Positions 8,702-53,660 are shown, numbered from the stretch's first letter. The stretch: DNA of 64,000 nt from Phenylobacterium sp. (GCF_036495085.1 NZ_DASXNL010000008.1:30015-94014); one strand, 5' to 3'. Made by a program: numbers and translations. The notes: generated by a model not told the origin, from the sequence alone.

Positions 8702-8771
8702 GGCTCAAGGCAGCGCACCCGCGACCTCCTTGCCCTTGCCTCCGCACTCCCGATCCGCCATATCCCCGCGC

Positions 8772-8865
<94 letters not shown>

Positions 8866-8952
8866 ACCTCTTCCTCCTGATCTCGATATTCTCCTCGACG
8901 GTGTCCGCGGACACCGGCTTTCCCCTTTGCCGGGAGCGGACCATCCTCTTAC

Positions 8953-19325: not shown

Positions 19326-19997
19326 TCAACTGGCTTCCCTAAGACGGGCGCCCGCGAGGAAGGGCGCGAGCATGGCGGTCTTGTACCGGACGAAAGATGC
19401 GTTCGAGGCCTCGGCGTGCGGGCCGACCAGCACCGTGGTCATGCCCAGCTCGGCAGCCGGCGCAAGATTGCCTTCCCGATCTTCGAAGAAGGCGGTCGAG
19501 CGAGGGGCGATGTCATGGGCGGCGGCCATTCGCGCGAACGTGGCCGGATGCGGTTTTGGCACATAGTCGGCAGCGCCGATGTCGAAGACATCGTCGAACA
19601 GTTGGTCGAGGCCCAGGCGCTTCAGCACCCGCTCGGCATGGACGTCGTCTGCATTGGTGAAGATCAGGCGGCGTCCCGGCAGGCGGGCGATGGCGGCGAC
19701 CAGATCTGGATCGCGCGAAAGTGCCTCAAGCGACATGTCGTGGAAGATCTTGTGGAAGTCATGAGGGTCGACCCCATGATGCTCGACAAGGCCGCCGAGC
19801 GTCAGGCCATACTCGGCCAGATACTTCTTCTGCAGCTTGTAGGCCTCGTCATGCGGCAGGCCGGTCACGCGCTCGACGTAGTCGGTCATCCGCCGCTCGA
19901 TCTCGCCCATGAAGCCGGATTCGACCGGGTAGAGGGTGTTGTCCAGGTCGAAGAGCCAGGTGTCGACGTGGCGAAGGTCGGCAGGCTGGGCGTTCAT
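19326..19997 (-). CDS. Pyrimidine 5'-nucleotidase (HAD family)
   Basis: [11 protein letters not shown] motif I, FTNA, KP, FFED..GNL. Confidence 0.9.
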
Positions 19998-20908
19998 TCG
20001 CAGACGAGCGTGCCCGCCCCGTGCTCGGTGAACAGTTCGACCAAGAGGGCGTGCGGCCGGCGGCCGTCCAGGATGACCACCGCGCCGACGCCGGCTTCCA
20101 CAGCGGCGATGGCGGTCTCCAGCTTGGGGATCATGCCGCCAGTCGCGACACCGTCGGCGATGGCCGCCCGCGCCTCGGCCACCGTCATCTGGCGGATCAG
20201 CTCACCGTTCTTGTCCAGCACGCCCACCACGTCAGTGAGCAGCAGCATTCGCTTGGCGTTGAGCGCGCCGGCCAGCGCGCCCGCCACGGTGTCGGCGTTG
20301 ATGTTGTAGGTCTGGCCATCCTCGGCGACGCCGATCGGGGCGATCACGGGGATGTAATCCTCGTCGGCGTAGATCAGGGCCTCGATCAACTTGGGATCGA
20401 CCCGCTTGGGATCGCCCACGAAGCCGAGGTCGACCATCTTCTCGATCTCGCTGTCGGGGTCTTTCTTGGTTCGGGCGACTTTCTCGACGGTGATCAGCCG
20501 CGCGTCCTTGCCGGAGAGCCCGACGCCACGCACGTCGGCTTCCTTGCCCGCGAGCGTGATCCAGTTGGCGATCTCCTTGTTGATCGCCCCGGAGAGCACC
20601 ATTTCGGCCACTTCCATGGTCGCCTCGTCGGTGACGCGCAGGCCATCGATGAAAGTCGACTTCACGCCGGCGCGCTCAAGCATGGCCGAGATCTGTGGGC
20701 CGCCGCCGTGCACGATGACCGGATGGACGCCCAGCATCTTGAGCAGCACCGCATCGGCGGCGAACAACTTGGCGACCTCTTCCTCGCCCATGGCATGGCC
20801 GCCGTACTTGATGACCACTGTCTCGCGGTCATAGCGCTGGATGTAGGGCAGGGCCTCGGCGAGCGTCTTGGCCGTCGCCCATCCCTCGCCTTGAGTGTCG
20901 TTCGTCAC
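19994..20908 (-). CDS. argB: Acetylglutamate kinase
   Basis: [36 protein letters not shown]. Confidence 0.97.
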
Positions 20909-21018
20909 GGGCGCGCCTGGCTCTTGGAACTTCGGAGCGCTCCGATAGCGGAGAGCGCGGCCCCTGTCACCTTTGCCCGGGCCTTGCTAAGCCTGCTTTC
21001 GAGACGCGGGGGCCGGGG

Positions 21019-21701
21019 ATGAGCACGCGTATTGCGACTGTTGTGACGGCGGCTGCGGCCGCCTGGACCTTGGCGGCGGCCGGCGCCGGGGCCGCGAGCG
21101 TGGCCGTGAGCGCCGACCGGCTGCTGGACGTGGCGAGTGGAAAATATGTCGACAAGCCGCGGGGGGTGATCACCGACGGTCGGATCTCGGCGGTGGAGCA
21201 CCAGGGCGAGGCGGTTCCAGCCGGCGCCGAGCCGGTCGACCTGCCTGGCGTGACGCTGCTGCCCCCCTGATCGACATGCACGTGCACCTGACGTCCTCGC
21301 CACTCTACGCCGGCTACAACCAGCTGCAGTTTACCGACAGTTTCTGGCCGAACATCGGCGCGGCGCACGCCAAGGCGACGCCCGAGGCCGGCTTCACAAC
21401 CGTGCGCAACGTGGGCTCCCAGAACTTCGACGACGTGGGCCTGCGCCAGGCGATCGACGCGGGGTATGTCCCAGGGCCGCGGATCGTGACGGCCACATAC
21501 GCCATCGGCTCGACCGACGGCCACTGCGACTCGACCTTCTTCCCCCCGTCGATGAAGCAGAAGGGCGATGCGGTCATCGACAGCCCCGACGCCGGCCGAC
21601 AGATGGTCCGCCAGCTCCACAAATACGGCGCCCAGGTCATCAAGATCTGCGCCACTGGCCGGCATTGGGTAGCAGACACAACCAAGCCGACGCGCGCGTA
21701 A
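21019..21701 (+). pseudogene. Frameshifted and truncated secreted amidohydrolase (Xaa-Pro dipeptidase-like)
   Basis: Signal peptide and VDLPGVTLLP in one frame; (L)IDMHVHL..AGFTTVRNVG..GPRI..GHCD..IKICATG in another (1-nt loss in CCCCCC at 21262-21267); homology stops at ~21660, C-terminal half absent. Confidence 0.85.
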
Positions 21702-22033
21702 TTTACTGCTCATCCTTCAGCGTTGGGCGGGGGCGGTCGGTCGCCGGCACTGCCCGCCGACCGCGACCGGTTGTGACTGAGGCTGTGTGGAAACGCGCAG
21801 GCTAGGTCGAACGCGGTCTTGCGCTGCACGCCAACAACCCGACATTCCCAAGGTCAGTGCAGGGTGGTTTTCCATCGTTCGGAACGCCGCTTTCGGCGTT
21901 TCTCGGCATCGGCTTTTAGCCGGACAATCCCTTTGTCGCCGCTTCGCATGACCTCGGCTTGACGGCAAAGCTTGAAGAGCGCGCAATGGTTGCGTCCGAT
22001 CCAAATACAGCGCAGGCGGCAGTAGGGGCACCG

Positions 22034-22627
22034 ATGATACGACGAGTGATGACTTGGGGCCCGGTGGTGGGAACGGTCGCGGCAGGGACCCTGCTGATCG
22101 GCGCCGAGCCTGTCACGCCTAGGCCCTTCCCGCCCTTGCCGGTACCGCCCATCCCGCACCAGGCCGTGCCGCCATACCTCGCGCGGATCACAATTTCCGG
22201 CGATGCCAAGATGACCGGCGTGTTCGAGAGTTGCGTGGACCCGGCGGCGATTATCAGGACCGCGCAGGCGCGGGCGAAGGCTCGAGCGGCGGATGCGCCG
22301 TCGCCTGTAGCCGGGTGCAGCCATACGAGCGAGGTGCGGGCGGATGGCTCCGTCCATACCGAGATGAGCTGCGACCGGGCGAAGGGCGCGAACGCCAGCT
22401 TCCGCATGATCAGCGATGGGACGCCGAACGACCTGCGCATGCATTTGGAGCGGTACGAACCCGCGACGGGGGCTCCGAAGACGACCATCTCCGACAGCCA
22501 CATCGTCCGCCTGGGGCCGTGTCCAGCCGACCTTGAGCCAGGCCAGATGCGGCGGCCCGGCGGGTCCATCATCGACAGGGGCGAGGCGGCGCGGCTTCTT
22601 GAGGACGCCCGAGGCACGGCTCCCTAG
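22034..22627 (+). CDS. Secreted hypothetical protein, DUF3617-like
   Basis: N-terminal hydrophobic segment, four spaced Cys, terminal ..RLGPC.. pattern typical of DUF3617; start uncertain (21959/22034). Confidence 0.55.
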   Translation: MIRRVMTWGPVVGTVAAGTLLIGAEPVTPRPFPPLPVPPIPHQAVPPYLARITISGDAKMTGVFESCVDPAAIIRTAQARAKARAADAPSPVAGCSHTSEVRADGSVHTEMSCDRAKGANASFRMISDGTPNDLRMHLERYEPATGAPKTTISDSHIVRLGPCPADLEPGQMRRPGGSIIDRGEAARLLEDARGTAP

Positions 22628-22654
22628 GGAGCGACACCCTGTCCGGCCGCATTG

Positions 22655-22747
22655 GGTCGTCAGCACGCTTTGGCTTCCTGCCCGAAACTTGCCGTTCACG
22701 GGGGTTGGCCGCCGGTTAGCTGAATGTCTCGAATCCGGCGCCATCCC
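22655..22747 (+). repeat. ~93-bp intergenic repeat, copy A
   Basis: Hand alignment gives ~72/93 identity to 25641-25732 (shared GGTCGTCAGCAC, TTGGCTTC..GCC.G.AACTTGCC, AGCTGAATGTC, GAAT.CGGCG.CATCCC). Confidence 0.85.
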
Positions 22748-22773
22748 GGCGGCAGCTCGTGGCGCGTCACGGC

Positions 22774-23286
22774 CTACAGCCGTCCAGCCGCCTTTAGTGA
22801 AGCTTCGATCTCGGGAAGGGACCGAAATAGCAGATACGGATCGGACGGAGAGGACAGGAAGCCGTGCCGTTTCCAGAACTCGATCGCCTCCTCATCGATG
22901 GCCCGCACCAAGACGGCGCGCCCGCCGGTAAGACGAGCACCGAGCACCGCGCGCTCCAGCGCATGGCCGAGGAGAGCTGCGCCGAGACCATGGCCGGCGT
23001 AGGCCAGGTCAATCGCGAGCTGCCCGAGCAGCAGACAGGGTATGGGGTTCGGAGGCTGGCCGGTCCGGATTTTCCTCGGCAGGACTGCGGCCTCGATGGC
23101 GGTCGGCGACAGCCCGTAGTAGCCGACGACCCGCTGCTCATAGTGAACGACGACAACCACGGTGAAGCCGTTCCGTTGGTTCGCCACTGCGCGGCTCTTC
23201 AGCCACGCGTTCAGCGCGGGCTTGCCGCAGTCGAAGCTTGTGAGGTCGTGGTTGGAGGTAAGGACCTCGGGCGCGGAGAACGACAA
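22774..23286 (-). CDS. GNAT acetyltransferase toxin (TacT/AtaT family)
   Basis: FDCGKPALNAWL, VVGYY.L, PIPCLLLGQLAID..YAGHGLG..LL, AIEFWKRHGF. Confidence 0.92.
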   Translation of the reverse strand: MSFSAPEVLTSNHDLTSFDCGKPALNAWLKSRAVANQRNGFTVVVVVHYEQRVVGYYGLSPTAIEAAVLPRKIRTGQPPNPIPCLLLGQLAIDLAYAGHGLGAALLGHALERAVLGARLTGGRAVLVRAIDEEAIEFWKRHGFLSSPSDPYLLFRSLPEIEASLKAAGRL

Positions 23287-23547
23287 CTACTGTTCCCAGG
23301 GCGTCCGGCGCTTCAGTAGCTCCACCATCTCAGGCACGGCCGCTGGTGACGCATCGAGGGCGGCCTTGAACGCTTCGAAATCAGCGGGATCCAATCGGAC
23401 AACCGATTGTTCCAGCAAGACCTCTTCAGCGGCTCGTACGGCGGCCTCGCGCACGAAGTCGGTCCGCGAGCGGCCGCGCAGATCGGCTGCTCGGTCGATG
23501 ATCGCCAGGTCCTGTTCCGGCAGGCGCATGGAAAGTGGCGTGGTCAT
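23287..23547 (-). CDS. DUF1778 RHH antitoxin (TacA/AtaR family)
   Basis: LSMRL....IIDRAADLRGRSRTDFVREAA..AAEEVL..Q..L...DFEAF.AALD. Confidence 0.92.
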   Translation of the reverse strand: MTTPLSMRLPEQDLAIIDRAADLRGRSRTDFVREAAVRAAEEVLLEQSVVRLDPADFEAFKAALDASPAAVPEMVELLKRRTPWEQ

Positions 23548-23569
23548 CGGACTACCTCCAGGGCCCTAA

Positions 23570-23599
23570 ATTAGTTTGATGTAGCGCATTTTGCAATAC
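23570..23599 (-). promoter_or_regulatory. TA promoter with palindromic operator
   Basis: Minus strand TTGCAA-N17-TAATTT; palindrome GTAnnGCA-N3-TGCnnTAC (23581-23599) overlaps -35; RBS GGAGG downstream. Confidence 0.65.
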
Positions 23600-23785
23600 G
23601 GACCGGGGTCCGGGCCATGGCTTCAGCCTGCGCGCCGCTGAAGGACTGTGCGAATGTCGGGTTGCTGCACATGATCCAATTTCCGCTTGTGGCGCTAAGG
23701 AGCTGAGGGCGCGCGGCCTGTCTTGTCTCAAGCTGAGGCGTTGGCCGATGTCGCTGGAGTTTGAGACTCCCTTTATGCCTGCGAT

Positions 23786-24727
23786 TTGGGGCCGCGATCG
23801 ATGCGGATCGCGAGACGACAGCAGGATCAACTCGTGACGGTCAGAACAACGCCGCGTAGAGCATCGCCGGCCAGGCCGATGAAGGTTCGCGATCGGGCTT
23901 TCGATCTGCACAAGACCGGGGTCGAGCGGTTTGACTGGCGCGACCCGTACCACGTGGCCGTGACGATCTCCTGGCCAGTATTCGCCGGACTCGCCTTTGG
24001 CGGTCTGCTCGCGCTCAATGCGGTTTTCGCGGGGCTTTATGTGCTCGAGCCGGGAGCCGTCCAGAACCTGCCGCCAGGCGACCTGGCCCGGGCATTCTTC
24101 TTTTCGCTCGAGACGCTAGCCACCGTGGGCTACGGGGAGATGGCGCCCCAGAGCCTCTATGGACACTCCGTGGCTGGGATCGAGATCGTGGTGGGCATGG
24201 CCTGGGTCGCGATCTTCACGGGCCTGCTGTTTGTCCGATTCTCCCGTGCTCAGTCCAAGATCCTGTTCGCCGACAAGATCGTGGTCGCGCCCCACAACGG
24301 CGCGCCAACGCTCATGGTCCGGATCGCCAACGGCCGCATGACCATGCTCACGCACGCCTCGGCCCGCCTCACAGTCTTGATCCCGGAGATCTCATCGGAA
24401 GGCTATTCGTCGCGGAGCGTTCATGACCTTCGGCTGGTGCGCGACAACATGCCCATCTTCCCGCTGACCTGGACAATGATGCACGTCATCGACGAAACCA
24501 GCCCGCTCCGCGGGCTCGGCCCCGATGAGCTCCGCGCGAAGGATGTGCGTCTATTCCTTACGGTGGAAGCCCGCGACGCCGCCCTCGGTCAAGTCGTGCA
24601 GGACCTCGCCGCCTTCCGGCCACACCAGATCGCGTTTGACCGTCGGTACGCGGACGCCGTTACCGTCGATGAACAGGGGCGCACCGCAGCCGATATTTCG
24701 CTACTGAGCGAGTTGGTCGAACTATAG
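23786..24727 (+). CDS. Inward-rectifier (KirBac-like) K+ channel
   Basis: FFFSLETLATVGYG filter, two TMs, GLLFVRFSR, LMVRIANGR, WTMMHVIDETSPL; start uncertain. Confidence 0.93.
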   Translation: MGPRSMRIARRQQDQLVTVRTTPRRASPARPMKVRDRAFDLHKTGVERFDWRDPYHVAVTISWPVFAGLAFGGLLALNAVFAGLYVLEPGAVQNLPPGDLARAFFFSLETLATVGYGEMAPQSLYGHSVAGIEIVVGMAWVAIFTGLLFVRFSRAQSKILFADKIVVAPHNGAPTLMVRIANGRMTMLTHASARLTVLIPEISSEGYSSRSVHDLRLVRDNMPIFPLTWTMMHVIDETSPLRGLGPDELRAKDVRLFLTVEARDAALGQVVQDLAAFRPHQIAFDRRYADAVTVDEQGRTAADISLLSELVEL

Positions 24728-24836
24728 GCGGACGCCCCCCACGCCGTGAATGTCCGGATGTTGGAGGAGCTGCAAGGTCCGAAACTGGCGCTGAGCTGCC
24801 GTCCGGCCCTCAATAATCAGCGCCACCGGGGCAGGT

Positions 24837-25268
24837 TTAGTCTCGCGTCGCTAGGTTCTTTCCGGTGGGGTGTAAGGCCAGAAACGCCTTGAGGATCTGG
24901 TTGAAGAAACCCGGAGGCACGAAGCCATAGTCATAGCGATCCTTGCGGGCGACTTTCCTGAGATCGTACCCAGGCCACAAAAACTCGTTGCCCTCCGTAA
25001 CGACCACCCAAGAGCGCTGATCGTCCAGCCCCAAGTGACGCTTGACCGGTGCAGGGATCTCGACCGCTCCGCCTGGGATGGTCGGGGCGCTGTGCGTGAT
25101 CGGGAGCACGGTGACGACCGTCGCGCCGTCCGCTTCACGATCTACCGCCAAGACGATCACGCTCGGGCGATCTTTGAGCCCCTCGTCTTGTCCGGCTTGG
25201 TGCTCGCGGCGCCAAAGATAGGCGTAGGCGATGACGAGGCCCGTCTCCGGGGTAGGGATCGTCGCCAT
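24837..25268 (-). CDS. PemK/MazF-like toxin (divergent alphaproteobacterial family)
   Basis: G.VI.YAYLW..E..G.DEG.KDRP.VIV, VTVLPITHS.P, HLGLD..RSWVV..E.N.F.WPG.DL. Confidence 0.7.
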   Translation of the reverse strand: MATIPTPETGLVIAYAYLWRREHQAGQDEGLKDRPSVIVLAVDREADGATVVTVLPITHSAPTIPGGAVEIPAPVKRHLGLDDQRSWVVVTEGNEFLWPGYDLRKVARKDRYDYGFVPPGFFNQILKAFLALHPTGKNLATRD

Positions 25269-25277
25269 GCGGCGGGA

Positions 25278-25550
25278 CTATTTCGGGTCGAGTAGGGCGT
25301 CGAGATGCGCGTGGCGGGGGTCCATACGCGATCCAGCAATCGCTCTTACCTTTTCGTCCGATAGCTCAGCGGTCGCGAAGCTTTGGCGCTGCTCTCTGAA
25401 GCGCCTAAATTCCTCGTAGTCATCCGGTCCAATAAAGTAGCCCGTGACCTGGCCATGGCTCGACACGGCTACGACCTCTCGCTGAGCCTGCATCCGATAG
25501 CGACCAAAATTTCGGGTGAACTCTGAGGCGGGTACTACTGTTGCTGCCAT
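25278..25550 (-). CDS. Phd/YefM-type antitoxin
   Basis: VPASEFTRNFGRY..AQREVVAVSSHG..TGYF..PDDYE Phd-like N-terminus; directly upstream of toxin. Confidence 0.8.
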   Translation of the reverse strand: MAATVVPASEFTRNFGRYRMQAQREVVAVSSHGQVTGYFIGPDDYEEFRRFREQRQSFATAELSDEKVRAIAGSRMDPRHAHLDALLDPK

Positions 25551-25581
25551 CGGGACACTTTCCTCTCGCGCCTCTTAATAT

Positions 25582-25612
25582 GCGTCAATTACGCGATTTA
25601 CGCAAGTTACGC
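25582..25612 (-). promoter_or_regulatory. Probable TA operator: 3 x TTACGC at 9-bp period plus one inverted half-site
   Basis: TTACGC at 25589, 25598 and 25607; GCGTCA at 25582. Confidence 0.6.
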
Positions 25613-25640
25613 GGGTATGCGTTGATGGAAGAACTATACC

Positions 25641-25732
25641 GGTCGTCAGCACAAATTGGCTTCTCGCCGGGAACTTGCCATCGACGGCGCGAGCCGCCCG
25701 GCAGCTGAATGTCTTGAATTCGGCGGCATCCC
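25641..25732 (+). repeat. ~92-bp intergenic repeat, copy B
   Basis: Direct repeat of 22655-22747. Confidence 0.85.
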
Positions 25733-25749
25733 AATGGCCGCTCATGGCG

Positions 25750-25969
25750 GATTGTGTTGAAAAACTCCATTTTTGGCGACCGCCCCCGAAATTCCGGGCC
25801 TCTGGCGGGACGTTTGAAATCGGACGCGGGGGACACCGTGCGAAATGACGCTGAACCCCTCAGTGCTCATCCCAGTTCGAGCACGGCGGCATCAATTGCT
25901 GATTTGGCGTCGCAAGCTCATTCAGGCCAATTTTTGAAGCCCCCGATTTCGGGGTTTATCAGCACAATC
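25750..25969. mobile_element. 220-bp MITE (non-autonomous, IS1182-like ends)
   Basis: TIRs GATTGTGTTGAAAAACTCC / GGGGTTTATCAGCACAATC (16/19 complementary), flanked by GGCG direct repeats (25746-25749, 25970-25973); no credible ORF. Confidence 0.8.
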
Positions 25970-26027
25970 GGCGCAGAGCGCTCATTGCGCGGTTGGCAAC
26001 CATGACAGGATCGACCGCGCTTGACCG

Positions 26028-27734
26028 TTACTGCCAGTCCAACAAGCGCCGGCGCCTGTCGGCCTTCAAAGTGGCCAAGGCCTTGTCGTAGGCGTTGAGT
26101 TTCGCAGAATTGGCCTCCTGGCGGGCAAACACCTTGTCGCCAAACTCCATCACCTGGCGGGCCTTCGGGTCATAGGTTGGCCACGTCGCAAGCCCCGGCC
26201 CGTTAGGGTCACCGGTCTTGACGAACCGCACCCAGGCCCCGCTCATCGCGGCCCCGAGGGCTTGGTCCGTGGCGTCTAACCCACTGATTTTCATGGATGG
26301 GTGTGCGAAGTTGTCGAGCGCGTAGACCATCTCGCTGGAATGGAAGCTACCGGCGATGGGGGGCAACCCGAAGACCTTCCAGGTGGCCCGGGTGAATTCA
26401 TAGCGCCAGACCGGCTGGTGGTGGACAGACATCGCGCGGGCGGCCGATCGCGCGCTGGCGACGAGGAGCCAATCGGTCACATACCGGATCGCGGCTGGCT
26501 GCACCTCGGCGTCCTTGGTCGCCGGATATAGCGACAGCAGAGTGTCGGAAACGGCGGGATAGCGGCGCTGTGCGAAAACGCGCCAGTCCTCGACCGTCTT
26601 GATCGGCATGCCAAATGAGAAGACCGAGCCATCGTCGGCGGTCGTGCCGACGAGCAGCGGAACCCGCGCCACCTTCCCCGCGTCGAACAGCGTCATCGGC
26701 TCGTCGGGCAGAACGTGACCATCGACGATCGGCCAGAATTCGATGCCCCGGTCAGAGAACTGCAGATCGGTCCGGACCTGAGCCTTCGCCAGCAATTCAG
26801 CCGCCGACAAGTGGCGCAGGGCCTCGATATCGGCGCCCACCGAAAGTCCTTCAGCCTCGGCCGACCGTAGACCATAGGCCGGCTCGCGCAGGTGCTGCTG
26901 CGGATACCAGACATAGCCAGGGCTTTCGCTGATCCCAGACCGGAACAGCCCTTTCGCCAGCGGCGAGGCCATCAGGTAGAGCACGGACACTCCGCCGGCG
27001 GAACAGCCCATGATCGTCACCTTCTTCGGATCGCCGCCGAAGGACGCGATATTCGCCTGAACCCATTTCAGGGCGGCGATCTGGTCGAGCAGACCGTAGG
27101 CGCCCGACGTGCCGGAAGGATCCTCCTTCGACAGCGCCGGATGCGCCATGAAGCCAAACACTCCGAGTCTGTAGTTGAAGCTCACGACGACGACGCCGCG
27201 TCTGGCCATCGCCGCCCCGTCTTCGGCGGGGAATGCGCTGCTGCCGCCGAAGAAACCGCCCCCGGGGATGTCCACCATGACGGGAAGCCTCTCGCCCGCC
27301 CTGTGTGGCGGCGACCAGACATTCACCGTCAGGCAGTCCTCGCTGACGTGGGTGAGGTCGGTTGGCGGCCCCGGCGCGGGGCCCTGCATGCAGGGCGAGC
27401 CGAACGCCTCGGCCTTCAGGACGCCCTTCCAGCCGGCCGCCGGCTGCGGCGGGCGCCAGCGCAGCCGTCCGACCGGCGGCGCGGCGAACGGGATGCCCTT
27501 GAAGGTCGCGACCCCGTCGACGTCCAGCCCCGAGACCTCGCCTGAGCGGGTCACGACGATCGGCGACCGGGCCTCGGCCGGCAGCGCGGCCGCCACGGAC
27601 GCCAGAACGAAACCGCAGATGCTGGCGACGGCGCCCAGTCGCCCGAGCGGCGACCGGGTCACGGCCCTGTGATATGACTCGGACGAACCGCGGGGCGAGG
27701 GGTTTGGGGCTAGTGCTTGCGAAGATATCGGCAT
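26028..27734 (-). CDS. Secreted type-B carboxylesterase/lipase (pNB-esterase-like)
   Basis: FKGIPFAAPPVG.LRW, SEDCLTVNVW, GGGF.GGS, NYRLG.FGF, DQIAALKWV..NI..FGGDP, GCSAGG nucleophile elbow; start uncertain (27734 or GTG 27662). Confidence 0.92.
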   Translation of the reverse strand: MPISSQALAPNPSPRGSSESYHRAVTRSPLGRLGAVASICGFVLASVAAALPAEARSPIVVTRSGEVSGLDVDGVATFKGIPFAAPPVGRLRWRPPQPAAGWKGVLKAEAFGSPCMQGPAPGPPTDLTHVSEDCLTVNVWSPPHRAGERLPVMVDIPGGGFFGGSSAFPAEDGAAMARRGVVVVSFNYRLGVFGFMAHPALSKEDPSGTSGAYGLLDQIAALKWVQANIASFGGDPKKVTIMGCSAGGVSVLYLMASPLAKGLFRSGISESPGYVWYPQQHLREPAYGLRSAEAEGLSVGADIEALRHLSAAELLAKAQVRTDLQFSDRGIEFWPIVDGHVLPDEPMTLFDAGKVARVPLLVGTTADDGSVFSFGMPIKTVEDWRVFAQRRYPAVSDTLLSLYPATKDAEVQPAAIRYVTDWLLVASARSAARAMSVHHQPVWRYEFTRATWKVFGLPPIAGSFHSSEMVYALDNFAHPSMKISGLDATDQALGAAMSGAWVRFVKTGDPNGPGLATWPTYDPKARQVMEFGDKVFARQEANSAKLNAYDKALATLKADRRRRLLDWQ

Positions 27735-27831
27735 GGGTTGGCTCCGCCTTGAGGGTGGAAGGACTCGCCGGCCACAAAAGCCCGGCCGCGCCGCACCGTC
27801 GCGGACGGCGCGATGACCGATCGCCGACCTA

Positions 27832-29796
27832 TTGCCGATGAGCGCCGACCTTTTCGTGCGCGGCGTCGAGTTGGCCGGTGAGCCCGACTTCCATCTCGGC
27901 GCGCTCTTCGTGCGGCCGTCGCGGCGCGAGATCGAGGTTGGCGGGCAGGCCGAGAAGCTTGAGCCGCGCGTCATGCAGGCCCTGGTGGTGCTGGCGGCCA
28001 ACCGCGACCGGGTGGTCTCCCGTGACCAGCTGATCGAGTCCTGCTGGGATCGTCGTATCGTCGGCGACGACGCCATCAATCGGTGCATGGCCAAGGTGCG
28101 GCGGGTCGCTCGGGCCCATGGCGGCTTCACCCTGGAAACCGTGCCGCGGGTCGGGTATCGGCTGAGGCTCGCGGCGCCGGGGGCGACGGCGGCCAAGAGC
28201 CGTCGGCTGCGCTGGGTGTGGCCCGCCTCCGTGGTCGGCGCAGCCCTTGTGCTCGCTGCCCTGGGTTGGTTCATGTGGCGTGGTGGCGCCACCCCGCTGA
28301 CGGCGGATAGCCCAGTCGCGATCCGGTCGTTCCAGTCCGTCACGACAGACGCCGCCGCCCGCGTTTTTGCGGTCGGCGTGGCCGACGACACCGCGGGCCT
28401 GTTGACCGAAAACGGCATCGAGATCGTGGCCGTCGACAGCCGTCGGCCACACCTTGAGATCGAGGGAACTGTCAGCGCTGACGCCGGCCGGCTGCGCACC
28501 AGGGTTCGCTTGCGCGATCCTCGGGCGGACGCGATTTTGTGGTCGGAGGAATTCACCGCTCCGACGTCCGAGGCGGCGCGCCTCCGCTTCGAAACCTCCT
28601 GGCGCCTGGTCGCCGCCGCGCAGACGGCCCGCGAGCTTCTTCGTGACCGCAGCCGCGACCTGGATTCCGTGGCTCTGGGGCTGGCGTTACAGACGCTGGA
28701 CTCCGCCCAGCAGTCGAGTTGGAAGCCGCTCAGCACGGCCGACGCGCTGGTGCGCCGCGCGCCGCTTTATGCGCCGGGTTGGGCCCTTCACGGCATGGTC
28801 CGGTTGGTCGAGTCCTCCTACGCGTCCGAGCCAGAGGCTGAGGCGTTGCGCCGGCAGGGGGTGGCCGACGCCCAGCACGCGCTCTCGCTGCGGCGCGACT
28901 TCGGTCCCGCCTACGGTTTGCTCGCCCTGGCCACACCGGTTCGGGACTGGACGGAACGCGCGCGCTTGCTGGAAAAAGGCCTGGCCCTCGCCCCAGGCCG
29001 CCTCAGCTCTACCATGGCCGACTTCCTGTCGAATAGCGGTCGCGTCGAAGACGCTCGGATGCTGAGCGAGCAGATCCTCGAGCGTGGACCCTCCCAGCCC
29101 GCCAACGCCGGCCAGGCTGTCGAAATTCGGTATCTCCGCGGAAGGACTCACGATGCGCAGGCCGGTGTCGACCGCTACTTGCCCATGCGCCCAGCCGACG
29201 CCAGCCTCCGGACGGCGGGGCTCGCTGTGGCCGTCCTGGCCGGAGATCCAGACCAGGCCCTGGCCATCTTGGGCGACCCGGCGCGCCGGCCGATCGACTT
29301 CACGGCGGAGACCCTACGCGCGACGACCGGCTTCGTGAATTGGCGGAAGTCCCAGACCGCGTCCGATCGCGAAGCGGCCCGCGCGGCGATCATGGCCGCC
29401 ACCGGCGCGCGCGGGCTGCAGCCCGGCCTGGCCGTGCAGATGCTGAGCGCTCTGCGCGAGATCGACAACGCGTTCGAGGTCGCGGATCGCTACGCTCAAG
29501 ATAGGCGGTTCCAGCGCCTCTATGGCCTGTCTCGGATCGGATTCCTATTCGGGCCGGCGACCGCGCCCCTCCGCGAGGATCGGCGGTTCGTCGACTTGGC
29601 GCGAACGCTGGGACTGCTGGACTACTGGCGGTCCAGCGCCCGCTGGCCCGACTTCTGCGAAAGCGAGCCGCGCTCGGTCTGCGCGGCTATGCGGGCCGGT
29701 CCTTCTGCTGGCCGCGCACCAGCGTCTTCCGTAAGCCGGCGCCCGCCGCAGCTGGAAATTCACCGCCGCCCGCGAACCGCGACCGCTCCCAGGTGA
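27832..29796 (+). CDS. CadC/ToxR-like winged-helix transmembrane regulator with TPR-like C-terminal domain
   Basis: LEPRVMQALVVLA...VVSRDQLIE.CW..IVGDDAINRC..KVRR..LETVPRVGYRL wHTH, one TM, helical repeats. Confidence 0.85.
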   Translation: MPMSADLFVRGVELAGEPDFHLGALFVRPSRREIEVGGQAEKLEPRVMQALVVLAANRDRVVSRDQLIESCWDRRIVGDDAINRCMAKVRRVARAHGGFTLETVPRVGYRLRLAAPGATAAKSRRLRWVWPASVVGAALVLAALGWFMWRGGATPLTADSPVAIRSFQSVTTDAAARVFAVGVADDTAGLLTENGIEIVAVDSRRPHLEIEGTVSADAGRLRTRVRLRDPRADAILWSEEFTAPTSEAARLRFETSWRLVAAAQTARELLRDRSRDLDSVALGLALQTLDSAQQSSWKPLSTADALVRRAPLYAPGWALHGMVRLVESSYASEPEAEALRRQGVADAQHALSLRRDFGPAYGLLALATPVRDWTERARLLEKGLALAPGRLSSTMADFLSNSGRVEDARMLSEQILERGPSQPANAGQAVEIRYLRGRTHDAQAGVDRYLPMRPADASLRTAGLAVAVLAGDPDQALAILGDPARRPIDFTAETLRATTGFVNWRKSQTASDREAARAAIMAATGARGLQPGLAVQMLSALREIDNAFEVADRYAQDRRFQRLYGLSRIGFLFGPATAPLREDRRFVDLARTLGLLDYWRSSARWPDFCESEPRSVCAAMRAGPSAGRAPASSVSRRPPQLEIHRRPRTATAPR

Positions 29797-30019
29797 AGCC
29801 ATGGGTCGAGGCTCGGTCGCCGAAGTCCGGAAGCCGAAAGCCGCACTCTCCCAAGTTCCGTCATAGGGTCGAAAGCCGCCATCCGCTGACCCCAGCGAGT
29901 GTCCGCTTCCTGGAGGTGAAGAATGGTCCGGAGGTGGCGCGGTGCAGCCATATCGACGGGCGTTCGCCAGGGCGAGGTAGATAGCTGACGGAGAACGTCG
30001 CTCGCTAAGCGCGGCGTGG

Positions 30020-31669
30020 ATGCTAGGATCGGAAGGGGTGTGCGCAGGGGGCAACTTGTATTCGGTCCATCTCGATCAGGCCTGTTTCCCAGCTCAGGCC
30101 GACGACGCCGTTCTCGAAACCACCGTCGGCGGGGTCCTGCGTGCGCGCGCCGAGGCTTCGCCGAGCGCCGAGGCGCTGGTCGAAGCCGATATCGCTGGCG
30201 TGCTCAGGCGGCGCTGGACCTATGCCCAATTGCTGGCTGACGCCGAACGGTTGGCCCAGGCGCTGTTGTCGCGCTACCGCCCCGGCGAGCGGATCGCCGT
30301 CTGGGCTCCAAACATCCCAGAATGGGTGATCCTGGAGTATGCCGCCGGCATGGCCGGCCTGGTGCTGGTGACCGCCAATCCGGCCTATCGCCCCCGCGAA
30401 CTGCAATTCGTGTTGGAGCAGTCCCGCGCGGCCGGCCTGTTCATGGTCGGTGAGTACCGCGGCAATCCGATGTCGGCGATCGCTGCTGAGGTCGCAGCCC
30501 AGGTCCCGGCGCTGCGTGAGGTCATCGACCTGGAGGACGCAGCCGCCCTCTACGCCGGCCATGATCCCTCCATCGAGCTGCCTCAGGTGAAGCCGACCGA
30601 CGCGGTGCAGATCCAGTACACTTCCGGCACAACCGGCTTTCCGAAGGGCGCGGTGCTGCACCACCGCGGCATCACCAACAACGCCCGCTTCGGCCATCGC
30701 CGCTACGGCGCACGCGAGGGCGAGACCTCACTCAACTTCATGCCGATGTTCCACACCGCCGGCTGCGGGATGGCGACGCTGGGCGCCTGCCAGGCGGGCC
30801 TGCGGATGATTCTCGCCAAGCTGTTCGATCCGCCGCGGATGCTGGACATCATCGCGGCGGAGCGGGTGGACATCAGCCTCGGCGTGCCGACCATGCTGGC
30901 GGGCCTGTTGGAGGCCCAGGCCATCCAGCCCCGGCATCTCAGCTCGCTGCGGCTGATGGGATCGGGTGGGTCGATGGTGCCACCGGAGCTGATCCGCCGC
31001 GTGCGGGCCGAATTCAACTGCGAATTCCAGACGGTCTATGGTCAGACTGAGAGTTCGCCGCTTCTCACTCAGACCCAGAGCGATGACGCTCTGGAAGACG
31101 TCTACACCACCGTCGGACAGCCTCTCCCGCAGACCGAAATCTCTATCCGCGATCCCGGGACCAACGCCGTCATGCCCGTGGGCGCAGTCGGCGAGATCTG
31201 CGCCCGGGCCTACGCCGTGATGCTGGAATACAACGACGATCCCGAGGCCACCGCCAAGGCCGTGGACGCCGACGGCTGGCTGCACACCGGCGACCTCGGG
31301 ACGCTCGACGCCCGGGGCTATCTGAAGGTCACGGGGCGGGTGAAGGAGATGATCATCCGGGGCGGCGAGAACTTGTTCCCCGCCGAGATCGAGAGCGTTC
31401 TCCTTGAGCATCCGGACGTAGCCGAGGCGGCCGTGGTCGGAGCACCTGACGAGCGCTGGGGCGAGATAGTCCTGGGCTTCGTGCGGCTGACGACGGGCGC
31501 CGAGCTGGACCGGGCGGCGCTGATCGCCCATTGCCGCGAGCGCATCTCGCCGCAGAAGACCCCGGCCCGCTGGATCGTGGTCACCGATTGGCCGCTGACC
31601 GGCTCCGGCAAGATCCAGAAGTTCGTTCTGCGCGACCGCTTCGTAGCCGGCGAGTTCGAGGTGGTTTAG
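30020..31669 (+). CDS. AMP-binding acyl-CoA synthetase
   Basis: YTSGTTGFPKG, YGQTE, GWLHTGDLG, KEMIIRGGENLFPAEIE, GSGKIQK. Confidence 0.95.
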   Translation: MLGSEGVCAGGNLYSVHLDQACFPAQADDAVLETTVGGVLRARAEASPSAEALVEADIAGVLRRRWTYAQLLADAERLAQALLSRYRPGERIAVWAPNIPEWVILEYAAGMAGLVLVTANPAYRPRELQFVLEQSRAAGLFMVGEYRGNPMSAIAAEVAAQVPALREVIDLEDAAALYAGHDPSIELPQVKPTDAVQIQYTSGTTGFPKGAVLHHRGITNNARFGHRRYGAREGETSLNFMPMFHTAGCGMATLGACQAGLRMILAKLFDPPRMLDIIAAERVDISLGVPTMLAGLLEAQAIQPRHLSSLRLMGSGGSMVPPELIRRVRAEFNCEFQTVYGQTESSPLLTQTQSDDALEDVYTTVGQPLPQTEISIRDPGTNAVMPVGAVGEICARAYAVMLEYNDDPEATAKAVDADGWLHTGDLGTLDARGYLKVTGRVKEMIIRGGENLFPAEIESVLLEHPDVAEAAVVGAPDERWGEIVLGFVRLTTGAELDRAALIAHCRERISPQKTPARWIVVTDWPLTGSGKIQKFVLRDRFVAGEFEVV

Positions 31670-31689
31670 GTCGTCTGCGGCGCATTTCC

Positions 31690-31712
31690 GTCCGCTTGGG
31701 TCGCTAGCGGAC
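31690..31712. repeat. Perfect copy of palindromic repeat family
   Basis: GTCCGCT-TGGGTCGCT-AGCGGAC hairpin at right edge of accessory region. Confidence 0.8.
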
Positions 31713-31782
31713 GCAGAGGAGAGGCGGCATAGAGTCTGCGCCTGGCGGCCTGGGGCCTTGGCCTTCGTCGGGACGAGGGGAC

Positions 31783-32421
31783 CTAAACCGAACAGGCCGC
31801 GACGATCTCGGCGCGGAGTTCAGGGATACCCAGGCCCTTCTCGGCGGAAGTGGCCACCACGCGGGGGAAGGCGGCGGGCCGTTTGGCGATGGCGGCGAGC
31901 GTCTTGGCGGTGACCGCCTCGACCTCCGAGGCCTTCAGCTTGTCGGCCTTGGTCAACACGATCTGGTAAGAGACCGCAGCGACGTCGAAGGCGTCGAGGG
32001 CCTCCTTGTCCACGTCCTTAAGTCCGTGGCGGCTGTCGATCAGCAGAAAGGCGCGCTTAAGGTTCGGCCGGCCTCGCAGATAGTCGCGACCGAGGTTCTG
32101 GAACTTCTTCACCTCGCCCCGTGAGGCCCGCGCGAAACCGTAGCCCGGCAGGTCGACCAGCCTGAGCCTGCCGTCGGCGACGAAGAAATTCACCTCTCGC
32201 GTGCGGCCCGGCGAATTCGAGGCCCGCGCCAGGTGCAGGCGCCCGGCCACCGCATTGATCAAGGTGCTCTTGCCCACGTTGGAGCGGCCGGCGAAAGCCA
32301 CTTCCGGCAGATCGGCGGGGGGGAGGCCGGCGATGTTCACCGCCCCCATCATGAAGCTGACCTCGCGAGCGAAGAGGACGCGGGCCGCCTCCAGGGCGTC
32401 GGCGTCGAAGACCTCTGTCAC
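31783..32421 (-). CDS. engB: Ribosome biogenesis GTPase EngB/YihA
   Basis: [23 protein letters not shown]; GTG start overlaps yidC stop. Confidence 0.96.
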
Positions 32422-34199
32422 CCCGCAGCCTTGCCCGTGACGCGCGCGAAGAACTTGTCGATGGGGTTTTCCACCTTGAAGCGGCGCATCATCACGTACT
32501 GCTGGACGGTGGTGAGCACGTTCGACCAGGTCCAGTAGATCAACAGGCCCACGGCGAAGGGGGCCATGATGAACATGAACACCCACGGCATCAGCTGGAA
32601 GATCTTCTGCTGAGCTGGATCGACACCGGTCTGCGGGGTCATGGACGTGGTCAGCCACATGGTGATCCCGTAGGCGAGCGGCAGGATGCCAAGATGCAGC
32701 GTCGTGTCGAGGATGCCGCCAACCAGCGGCAAGTGGGCCGGGTTCCAGGGGATCAGGCCGAACAGGTTCCAGATGGTCGTCGGATCACGCGCCGAGAGGT
32801 CGTTGATCCAGCCCATGAAGGGGGCGTGGCGCATCTCGATGGTGACCGACAGCACCTTGTAGAGCGAGAAGAACACCGGGATCTGCAGCAGGATCGGCAG
32901 GCAGCCGGCCAGCGGATTGACCTTCTCCCGCTGGTAGAGGGCCATGATCTCCTGCTGCTGCTTGGCCGGGTCGTCCTTATAGCGCTTGCGAAGGTCCTCC
33001 ATCAGGGGCTGCACCTTCTTCATCTTGGTCATCGACTCGTACTGCTTGTTGGCGATCGGGAAGAAGGCCACGCGCACGCAGACGGTGAGCAGCAGGATGG
33101 CGATGCCGAAGCTGCCCACATGGGCGAAGATGTATTCAAGGAAGGCGAAGATCGGCCGGGTGAAGAACCAGAACATGCCCCAGTCGACGGCTTCGTCGAA
33201 GTGGGGGATGGCGAGATTGGTCTGATAGGCCTTGAGCAGGGGTACGACCTTGGCGCCTGCGAAGAGATGCTGCGCGACGCTCACCTGCTGCCCGGGCGCG
33301 ATCGTCCGCGCCCCGCCGGTGTAGTTGGCCTCAAAGACGTTGAGGTCGCCGTCCTGGGCGTCGCGGAAGACGGCGTGGATCTGCTCGGATGCGTTCGGGA
33401 TCAGCGAGGCCAGCCAATACTTGTCCGTGATCCCGGTCCAGCCTCCAACGGAGTTGAATTCCTGGGCGGCGGCGCCCTTCTTCGAGAGGTCCTTGTACTT
33501 GAACGACCGGACGCGGCCATCGAGGTAGCCGATCGTGCCTTCGTGGACGATGCCGGACTTGCCCACCTCAGGCGGCACGCCCTGGCGCTGCACAGAGCCG
33601 TACGGAGCCAGCGTCACCGGCCCGGCGCCGGTGTTGGTCACTGTGTCGGTGAACTTGAACATGTAGTTCTCGTCCACGTCGACCCGCCGCGCGAACGTGA
33701 GACCCTGGCCGTTGGAATAGGTCATCACCACCGGGTGGCCGGGGCTTAGCGTCGTGCCTTGCGTCAAGGTCCAGACCGTGGTCGCGCTCGGCAGGCCAGG
33801 CACGTTCTGGCCGACCCAGCCGAAATCCACGAACCAGGGGAAGGCCGCGCCTTCGGGGCGCAGCATCTCGACCGGCGGCGAGTCCTTGGCGGTGGTCTGG
33901 CGGTAGCGCGTGAGGAAGAGGTCGTCGAGCCGGGCGCCGCGCAGGGAGATGGAGCCCTTCAACGCCGGGGTCTCGATCGGGACGCGTGGGCTGGTCGCGA
34001 GCGCTGCGGCGCGGGTGACCGCCGGCGGAGCGGCCATCGCAGGCGCACCGGGCATGACGGCGGCGGCGGCGGGTGGATGCGCCTTCAGCTCGGCCTGCCG
34101 GCGCTTGGCCTGCGGGTCGATCACGTACACCTGATAGATGACGAACAGGATCGCGGCGCACACGCCGAAGATGAGCAGGTTGCGGTTGTCTTCGGTCAT
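32418..34199 (-). CDS. yidC: Membrane protein insertase YidC
   Basis: [43 protein letters not shown]. Confidence 0.97.
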
Positions 34200-34213
34200 C
34201 GAGGGGAGGCTGC

Positions 34214-34609
34214 TCAATCTTGCGGGGGTGGGGCGCGTGCAGGGTCGCGCGCGCGGCCATCGCCATCGGCGGCGAGCCTTATCAGCGCGCTTTTCACATC
34301 GTCAAGCAAACGCGACCAAGGGCGGGTGGTCACACCGCCGCGGGCCACGAAAACATAGTCGAAACCTGGGGACGCCAGCGCGGGAAGCAAGAGGCGGGCG
34401 GCCTCACGCAGGCGCCGCTTTGCCCGGTTGCGCTCCACGGCGCCGCCGATACGCTTGGTGGCGGTGAAGCCAGCGCGAACCAGAGGCCTATCGTCACGGG
34501 GGCGGGCCTGGACGAGCACGGCGCCGCGCGCGCAGTGAGCTGCTTGCGCGCAGGCCAGGAAGTCCGGGCGCTTCTTCAGGCGTTCGATTTTGAAGAGGGC
34601 GTCGGTCAC
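34214..34609 (-). CDS. rnpA: Ribonuclease P protein component
   Basis: [33 protein letters not shown]. Confidence 0.95.
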
Positions 34610-52797: not shown

Positions 52798-53541
52798 CTA
52801 CTCGACTTCCCAATCGAACTCGCCGCGCACGTCGAAAGGCGCTTCGCAGAGGCATGTGTTCAGGCCTTCACGGGTGCCTTTGCGCGGCAGGCGGAAGACG
52901 AACTCGATGCGGTCCTTCGCGAAGGATTTGTGTTCGCCGACGATCTTGCAGCCCTGGCCCTCCAGCACCTGGCGATAGACCTGGGCGCATTCTCCGACGC
53001 GTCCCGGCGGGAGCTGGCTGATCCTGACGCGGCAGATGGGCCGCGAATCGAACAGGTAGATCAGGACGAAGGCGAAGAGCGTGGTGATCGCCGCAAAATG
53101 CGGCAGGCCGAGGCCGCAGCTCAGCCCCACCAGGGTGACGATGATAAGCCGGCCGGTATTCCGCGCCGAGGCCGTATCGGTGCGGAACCTCATTAGCCCG
53201 CCGAGGCCGAAGACCACTACGCCGACGACCATGCCGAACTCGCGCACAGTCACCCCGATCACCGCGCCGATGAAGGCGTAGAGAATATAGACCCTGGGCA
53301 TGTCGGCTTCGCTGAGGGTATCCACCGTACGCGGAGTAGTCGGGTGGTAGGCGATCAGCACGCTTAGCCCTGTCGCCATGAGCAGGGCGCCGATCGACTC
53401 GGCCATGAAGCGCGTGTCGAGGAAGCCGGCCCAGCCGGCGGCGGAAAGCTGGCCCTGCGGCGCCTCGAACAGCCCGTGGGTCTGAGCCCAGGCGACACTC
53501 GGCGCCAACAGCAACAGAAGAAAGATCGTCAGCGATCGCAT
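52798..53541 (-). CDS. DUF4956-like membrane protein with signal peptide
   Basis: AWA-Q signal, 4-5 TMs, FGLGGLMRFRT..A..TG..I..VGL.CG.G pattern and C-terminal ACT-like domain. Confidence 0.7.
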   Translation of the reverse strand: MRSLTIFLLLLLAPSVAWAQTHGLFEAPQGQLSAAGWAGFLDTRFMAESIGALLMATGLSVLIAYHPTTPRTVDTLSEADMPRVYILYAFIGAVIGVTVREFGMVVGVVVFGLGGLMRFRTDTASARNTGRLIIVTLVGLSCGLGLPHFAAITTLFAFVLIYLFDSRPICRVRISQLPPGRVGECAQVYRQVLEGQGCKIVGEHKSFAKDRIEFVFRLPRKGTREGLNTCLCEAPFDVRGEFDWEVE

Positions 53542-53660
53542 TTGATATCCGCCCACGCCCAATTGGGCAGGTTGGGCGCGGCCCGCGGCTTTGGCAAGCG
53601 GGGCCACCTGGAGATACCGAAGGCGGTGCGCCCGCGCCGTCGAGGCGATATGATCGGCCC

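Follow-up and report, generated by a model that had tools for sequence, protein, structure and literature searches.

The window analysed here is a stretch of 64,000 nucleotides, contig C8:30015-94014 of a 197-contig, 4.5-Mb draft genome. The host is a Phenylobacterium-like member of the Caulobacteraceae, and the closest relatives of its argB gene are found in Phenylobacterium and in metagenome-assembled genomes of Caulobacteraceae. Between a truncated amidohydrolase gene and engB the window carries a 10.1-kb insertion (21660-31792) that is specific to this genome. Five same-strand (plus) copies of one repeat family lie in the intergenic gaps of the insertion, together with one perfect minimal hairpin at 31690-31712. 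These repeats are decayed copies of a Caulobacteraceae-wide element of ~140 nt, which we call R1. One palindromic unit of R1 has, to judge from its sequence, the anatomy of a tyrosine-recombinase core site, and in other genomes R1 is found beside a small tyrosine recombinase, which we call sInt. The reading that we favour, and to which we give about even weight, is that the repeats would be the recombination sites of sInt and the window a decayed array of them. It is the most economical reading because the core is site-like, the recombinase is tightly linked to the repeat, and the recombinase's own unit breaks at the core spacer.

In this proposal sInt would recombine at the cores of R1 and would itself be carried on a repeat-sInt-repeat unit of ~0.9 kb. 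If circles bearing a site were integrated one after another into a site already present, the result would be co-oriented sites that enclose the inserted genes, whichever way these run. The window would be an array of six modules, including two toxin-antitoxin pairs, built between the truncated amidohydrolase gene and engB. This array would now be decaying, because the sInt of the window genome survives only as a frameshifted fragment on other contigs. From the evidence below we infer two things: the action of sInt on R1 sites, and the arrival of the genes between them by this means. Possibly, the insertion is what remains, as a fossil, of a gene-stacking system like that of integrons.

R1 and its copies in the window

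Short words taken from the repeats (AATGTCCGC, GTCCGCT, TGGGTCG, and TGGCGCT) occur at chance frequency genome-wide. The bipartite pattern GA[AG]TGTC-N31-TGGCG is found seven times in the 4.5-Mb genome at the spacing of 31, and zero to three times at each other spacing from 24 to 39. Five of the seven matches are in the insertion, all on the plus strand (22722, 23652, 24748, 25707, and 29897). Across 301 family genomes the pattern is about eightfold commoner than a reversed control, as estimated from a per-genome table, and the matches in family genomes give the consensus GAATGTCCGSTTTCCGGAGC-N5-CCAATGTCCGCTCNTGGCG.

The flanks of 19 bipartite-pattern matches defined the ~140-nt mosaic, and R1 is the covariance model built from better-preserved copies in relatives. 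The mosaic has a palindromic unit 1, GTCCGCTTT-GGGTCG..TTGGCTTC..-AAAGCGGAC, followed by a linker that contains CTGAATGTC (..GCTGAATGTCTGGTTTCCGGA..), including GAATGTC, and by a palindromic unit 2, AATGTCCGCT-NN-TGGCGC-NN-AGCGGACATT (AGCGGAC). The core consensus is GTCCGCT-N-TGG(GT)CGC-N-AGCGGAC. It is the layout of unit 2, with inverted arms of 7-10 bp around a spacer of 8-10 nt, that gives it the appearance of a core site. R1 matches are present in 130 of 201 family genomes and in 20 of 27 genera. The consensus pairing holds in 63% of cells, against 28-44% in slid controls. No Rfam family matches the repeats, either at the gathering threshold or at E <= 1.

The repeats had been noticed in a reading of the window from its sequence alone, as degenerate hairpins with AATGTCCGCT and AGCGGACATT arms around a GGGTCG or TGGCGC loop. 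This consensus agrees with that of the family in other genera, and the covariance-model scan of the genome and its relatives that was proposed then returned a real family, confined within the window to the insertion. The repeat strings cited by the sequence-only reading are all in place, except that the right half of the copy split by a MITE (miniature inverted-repeat transposable element) is at 25970, not 25986. The unit of the family is the ~140-nt mosaic and not a single hairpin. Most copies in the window have lost their stems, and the one at 31690-31712 alone is a perfect hairpin.

All window copies are on the plus strand, and their orientation is constant despite the differing directions of the neighbouring genes. 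Copy 1 (22636-22785) has the full ~140-nt mosaic and scores 110 bits with R1, with GGGTCG at 22654, GAATGTC at 22722, and TGGCGC at 22760. Copy 2 (23592-23718; 21.7 bits, E = 0.007) is decayed and has GAATGTC at 23652 and TTCCGCTTGTGGCGC at 23681, at the exact N31 spacing. The same spacing is kept in the decayed copy 3 (24687-24811; 15 bits, E = 0.19), with GAATGTC at 24748 and TGGCGC at 24786. Copy 5 (29848-29960; 21.1 bits, E = 0.009), also decayed, has GGGTCG at 29866, GAGTGTC at 29897, and TGGCGC at 29935, again exactly spaced, and aligns with copy 3 over 53 nt without gaps at 68% identity. Copy 4 has the best-kept core, AATGGCCGCTCA-TGGCG/C-AGAGCGCTCATT, and is split into a left part (25622-25749; 84 bits over 25622-25780) and a right arm (25970-25990); the joined segments 25735-25749 and 25970-25985 make a 9/11 palindrome. 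The 220-bp MITE that sits in its spacer (25750-25969) has imperfect terminal inverted repeats of 19 bp (GATTGTGTTGAAAAACTCC / GGGGTTTATCAGCACAATC) and a duplication of 4 bp, GGCG. One full copy of this MITE and three partial ones, on contigs C21, C28, and C32, are present in the genome. At the right end of the insertion is the minimal core GTCCGCT-TGGGTCGCT-AGCGGAC (31690-31712), the sole perfect hairpin. The two ends of the insertion share TTGGGT(A/C)GC motifs (CATTGGGTAGC at the left junction, GCTTGGGTCGCTAGCGGAC at the right end).

Copies 1 and 4 form a direct repeat of ~110 nt (22651-22768 and 25638-25749, 76-80% identical). At C135:2404-2515 lies a third copy, which matches copy 1 at 87% identity; the repeat alone is common to them and the flanks are not. 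The claim that copies occupy nearly every gap holds for six of the eight gaps in the insertion. The gap at 27738-27831, between a carboxylesterase gene and a regulator gene, has no copy by the R1 model and the gene map, and that at 21660-22033 has a junction motif only. In an R1 scan of the 64 kb, the rest of the window gave a single marginal match (53440-53546, E = 0.56), and in 283 kb of syntenic DNA, taken from 19 relatives, there was one match at E < 0.1. The sequence-only reading had not noticed copies in most housekeeping spacers.

Several other identities were tried and rejected. The GGGGTCG start hinted at a Tn3-type inverted repeat; neither a terminal inverted repeat to match it nor a transposase is present. 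The string TCGAATCC hinted at a tRNA or tmRNA fragment; it is not conserved in other copies, and ARAGORN was negative. Reading frames are not conserved, as they would be for a small open reading frame (ORF) inside the repeat. TGGCGC-N5-xGC resembles a sigma-54 promoter, and its spacing is one base short of GG-N10-GC. R1 itself is not a MITE: its ends share only the 7-9 bp arm and no target-site duplication was seen, and the 220-bp insert in copy 4 has both terminal repeats and a duplication.

It is improbable that the repeats are transcription terminators, or 3' hairpins that stabilize mRNA, which resemble one another by chance. Four window copies do lie close behind plus-strand stop codons (those of the DUF3617-like, Kir, regulator, and acs genes), and several copies in relatives are 5-60 nt past a stop codon. 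However, in crude gene calls around 74 copies, 72 of 140 flanks have a stop codon facing the element, as chance would give, and R1 points the same way as the upstream gene in 36 cases and the opposite way in 34. Two window copies (23592 and 25622) are in promoter gaps, most no longer fold, the hairpins have no T-run after them, and Rfam gives no match. The possibility that the repeats are simply terminators, which had been named as a test of the cassette idea, is not supported by these counts.

The recombinase sInt beside R1

A search for integrases near R1 arrays found sInt, a PF00589 protein of 208 amino acids (aa) that adjoins R1 in four loci (L185, L138, L141, and L119). It consists of the catalytic domain only, keeps the R...K...HxxR...H...Y residues, and looks catalytically competent. 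It matches only the catalytic part of Xer and integron-integrase models, far below their cut-offs. NCBIfam has no specific model for it and gives a weak match to 'tyrosine-type DNA invertase' (E = 2e-5). Of 201 family genomes, 46 have sInt, and its identity across genera is 76-97%; the gene is often frameshifted, and strains with an intact copy exist. In a large protein collection its relatives at E <= 1e-20 make up at least about 8,000 protein clusters, and the best 120 relatives are 75-96% identical and nearly all exactly 208 aa long. sInt is also found on 437 plasmid records across the Proteobacteria, annotated merely as 'tyrosine-type recombinase/integrase'.

R1 and sInt are linked both locally and by genome. 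At E < 0.1 there are 21 R1 matches in 98 kb of sInt loci, compared with one in 63 kb of loci that hold homologues of the toxin-antitoxin and Kir genes of the window. R1 is present in 41 of 46 genomes with sInt and in 89 of 155 without it. In at least 12 of 24 sInt loci, from several genera, the start codon has a same-strand AATGTCCGCT-NN-TGGCGC end 43-105 nt upstream of it, and conservation between loci upstream of sInt ends at TGGCGC. On the 3' side of the stop codon a small hairpin is followed by GGGTGGA-AGCGGAC or by a full GAATGTC-N31-TGGCGC module.

Breakpoints are seen in two genomes (loci L189 and L190) whose sInt proteins are 97% identical. Their shared DNA begins at GCTATGCGCC, 105 nt ahead of the start codon, and ends at TGGCGC, about 110 nt past the stop codon; immediately outside this stretch the two diverge. 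Among 14 genomes of the same genus the sole recurring unit is repeat-sInt-repeat (L185:6827-7723, ~0.9 kb); the flanks are unique, and many copies are truncated. The repeat-sInt-repeat unit moves between genomes, with breakpoints at TGGCGC.

In the window genome sInt is reduced to fragments: an N-terminus at a contig end (C62:2-133), with a degenerate R1-like stretch upstream, and a piece with two frameshifts (C125:4352-4667). Pfam finds no recombinase in the accessory region of the window. It had been proposed that the repeats are mobilised in trans by an unlinked recombinase or a transposase of the HUH/REP type. The first half fits a tyrosine recombinase that is linked to R1 elsewhere and is unlinked and fragmentary here; the transposase half falls away.

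Mobilisation by a REP-associated tyrosine transposase (RAYT, an HUH Y1 enzyme), as for repetitive extragenic palindromes (REP) and bacterial interspersed mosaic elements (BIME), is very improbable and is largely refuted. It would account for mosaic palindromic units in intergenic DNA, and the genome does have one Y1_Tnp gene, at C169:817-1179. However, PF01797 is present in only 37 of 201 genomes, against 130 of 201 for R1, and the genome G097 has 29 R1 copies and zero Y1_Tnp genes. There is no R1 match at E < 0.1 within ~1.5 kb of 12 Y1_Tnp genes (38 kb), the sole match having E = 0.76. The suggested search for a co-occurring recombinase or RAYT therefore gave sInt beside R1, and no significant R1 at the 12 Y1_Tnp loci. 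The gene on C169 scores strongly (147 bits) as a Y1 transposase gene of the IS200/IS605 type and has no relation to the repeats.

An arrangement of the same kind is found on plasmid pASDW145_1 of Asticcacaulis sp. DW145 (L219, 7980-13600). Here an sInt gene (61% identical) is followed by RelB/RelE and small hypothetical genes, and each gap has GCGCC(C/A)-N3-4-GCGGACATT together with CCCGAAAGCGGAC; read on the other strand, these are the motifs of R1. A Hen1/Pnkp RNA-repair operon is upstream of sInt on this plasmid.

Arrays, intervening genes and known systems

R1 copies often lie in series among accessory genes. Of 26 pairs of neighbours separated by less than 20 kb in five complete genomes, 25 share a strand, and arrays of 4-9 copies, all on one strand and at 1-3 kb spacing, are seen in L138, L141-L144, L146, L149, and L187. 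The genes in these arrays run in both directions. They encode short-chain dehydrogenases, LysR and TetR regulators, hydrolases, glyoxalases, glutathione S-transferases, and TIR+TPR proteins; among the 25 commonest array-gene families listed there is no recombinase family. In L149 (G188:C46, 5043-11029) a 3.07-kb tandem duplication, 93% identical, has ends that coincide with R1 copies. The duplicated segment holds an ArsR-like regulator and its neighbours. In L124 (G176:C206, 7541-9668) an IS91-like pair, consisting of a transposase gene and a 301-aa integrase-family ORF, is found between two repeat copies; this integrase is only 25% identical to sInt.

Two simpler cues for orientation were rejected. 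With dnaA as the origin, replichore direction fits 49 of 71 copies, an apparent better fit having come from assuming that records start at the origin, and an eight-copy cluster in G097 is on the 'wrong' strand for its replichore. Local GC skew, taken on short loci, gave no guidance (19 of 33).

In the main rival to the sInt-site reading, R1 would be an intergenic repeat of the CIR, BIME, or MITE kind, dispersed and without genes, that spreads or persists by some route in the flexible genome. The sInt unit would be a separate mini-element that targets R1, and the genes between the repeats would never have been cassettes. We consider this possible, if on the doubtful side. The 140-nt mosaic exceeds what a recombinase core needs, its architecture is as reported for the CIR repeats of Caulobacter (PMC2229807), and the sInt unit alone has been seen to move between genomes. 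A dispersed repeat on its own, however, leaves the local co-orientation, which is independent of gene direction, unexplained, and replichore direction accounts for too few copies to supply the cause. Nor does it account for R1 being confined to the insertion, or for the tandem duplication bounded by R1.

The intervening genes themselves speak for the dispersed repeat. DNA homologues of the DUF3617-like gene, the TacAT pair, the Kir channel gene, and the MazF/Phd-like pair of the insertion occur separately elsewhere, and the matches stop at gene or operon ends; identities are 64-79% for the last three. R1 is essentially absent from 19 loci with TacAT, Kir, or MazF/Phd-like homologues, and the sites therefore do not move along with these genes. 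The idea that the repeats travel with the toxin-antitoxin and Kir modules was rejected for this reason. The DUF3617 paralogue at C23:76969-77652 is 83% identical in a gene-only match with no repeat beside it. The TIR-TPR genes give a mixed result: the gene on C135 has R1 on both sides, as do its homologues in G164 and G205, the paralogues of the window genome on C51 and C137 have none, and R1 is within 1.5 kb in seven of 29 homologue loci. Further points weigh against sInt sites in the same way. Five genomes (G097, G164, G205, G212, and G250) have 13-29 R1 copies without an intact sInt. sInt sits inside arrays and not at an array head, and on pASDW145_1 the sites are on the strand opposite to sInt. 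For the hairpins, covariation is not significant by pair counts. The likeness of the insertion's left junction at 21660 to the repeat is short and was spotted post hoc.

The TIR+TPR family (N-terminus MxDVFISYARST...) has five copies in the window genome, on C135, C51, C137, C172, and C48. In a 200-genome sample it is in none of the 16 other genomes of the genus and has at least seven copies per genome in genera g36 and g39. This distribution suggests a horizontal origin for part of the flexible DNA of the window genome.

Modules of small size, often toxin-antitoxin modules, that are bounded by short core sites are known from Acinetobacter plasmids, where pdif sites are acted on by XerC/XerD. 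R1 arrays resemble these and other Xer-exploiting elements in having small gene modules between recombinase core sites with the recombinase encoded elsewhere. The orientation of pdif sites alternates, and their layout is 11-6-11 around an AT-rich centre, whereas R1 sites are GC-rich direct repeats within a 140-nt mosaic. In size (about 200 aa) and in having the catalytic domain only, sInt is like recombinases of the FimB/FimE type; those enzymes invert a promoter segment between inverted repeats, whereas R1 sites are direct repeats kilobases apart. With REP and BIME sequences R1 shares a mosaic of intergenic palindromic units. Unlike them, it neither co-occurs with nor adjoins Y1 transposases.

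Classical integrons are reportedly absent from Alphaproteobacteria. R1 arrays are like integrons, and like clusters of attC sites lacking integron-integrases (CALINs), in several respects: co-oriented, imperfectly palindromic sites at gene boundaries, a tyrosine recombinase, toxin-antitoxin modules with their own promoters, and arrays that outlast the recombinase. Unlike an integron integrase, sInt is 208 aa long, without a core-binding domain or the IntI-specific insert, and lies inside arrays, not at a head with attI and Pc. R1 sites have no conserved GTTRRRY/RYYYAAC cores, in line with the sequence-only reading, which had described an integron-like array without attC cores, and there is no evidence for single-stranded folded substrates. 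In R1 arrays genes run both ways while the sites are co-oriented. Tentatively, and with more doubt than confidence, we propose integron-like gene stacking in Caulobacteraceae, and perhaps in many Proteobacteria that have this family of 208-aa recombinases on their plasmids. The recombinase, minimal and with the catalytic domain only, would itself be a cassette, its GTCCGCT-spacer-AGCGGAC cores would be embedded in ~140-nt mosaics, and the products would be co-oriented arrays of accessory and toxin-antitoxin genes.

The nearest described repeats are CIR1-4, which are associated with CcrM in Caulobacter and relatives and whose mobility mechanism is given as unknown (Chen & Shapiro 2003, via PMC2229807 and PMC10969869). 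R1 shares the CIR layout described there, which is strictly intergenic and about 110 bp long, with two inverted-repeat arms and a linker; the likeness is to the CIR descriptions (PMC2229807). GANTC is present in some R1 copies only (GAGTC, GATTC, or GAATC in L119, L121, L129, L130, and window copy 1) and is absent from most. Neither a recombinase link nor an array structure was found reported for CIR in the portions of these texts covered, and the literature searched, which does describe the CIR-like architecture, gave no recombinase link or arrays either.

If R1 sites are substrates of sInt, they would represent a second, independently built form of gene stacking by site-specific recombination, using the smallest kind of tyrosine recombinase. 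They would also provide a mechanism for CIR-like repeats, whose mobility was still called unknown in a 2007 review (PMC2229807), four years after the 2003 description. If they are not, the work still describes cleanly a widespread family of repeats and, between argB and engB, a hotspot of recombination.

The insertion between argB and engB

A gene map of 19.9-34.2 kb was built from ORFs and Pfam. On the minus strand argB (19994-20908) precedes an N-terminal fragment of an amidohydrolase gene on the plus strand (21276-21701; Pfam Amidohydro_1, profile positions 9-119 of 345). In BLASTN against relatives, homology breaks off at 21659-21662, inside the amidohydrolase gene, and picks up again at 31793. 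At the left break relatives continue with GCCACCGGCGGGGTGTTC and the window has GCCACTGGCCGGCATTGGGTAGC. The left junction itself (21660-21680, plus), CGGCATTGGGTAGCAGACAC, is similar to the way the repeat begins (CCGCATTGGGTCGTCAGCAC at 22646). The accessory region pointed out from the sequence is therefore a real insertion, and argB and engB are adjacent in some relatives (L011, L022, and L038). In others (L009, L013, L016, L017, and L047) an intact amidohydrolase gene and other DNA separate the two; this other DNA amounts to 2-8 kb. From these comparisons the argB-engB interval, between genes that lie head-to-tail on the minus strand, is a variable hotspot in the genus. The argB-engB spacer of relatives (loci L009-L047; window 20909-21275 and 31713-31792) has a half-site-like string, ..CCGATAGCGGAC...

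Six modules make up the insertion. Module 1 is a DUF3617-like gene (21959-22627, plus; weak Pfam match). Module 2 encodes a GNAT toxin and a TacA/DUF1778 antitoxin (22774-23547, minus; Pfam), and module 3 a KirBac-like potassium channel (23786-24727, plus; Pfam IRK_C and Ion_trans_2). The MazF/PemK-like and Phd-like genes of module 4 (24837-25550, minus) have weak Pfam matches and are probably a toxin-antitoxin pair. Module 5 (26028-29796) has two genes with Pfam matches, for a carboxylesterase (26028-27737, minus) and a Trans_reg_C+TPR regulator (27832-29796, plus). Module 6 is an acyl-CoA synthetase gene (30020-31669, plus; Pfam AMP-binding). Beyond the insertion, engB (31783-32658) and yidC (32418-34217) are overlapping ORFs with unrefined starts on the minus strand, named by sequence and synteny and not by Pfam. 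Elsewhere in the window, a bacterial small signal recognition particle RNA (Rfam RF00169, 63.5 bits) is found at 8771-8869, upstream of dnaX.

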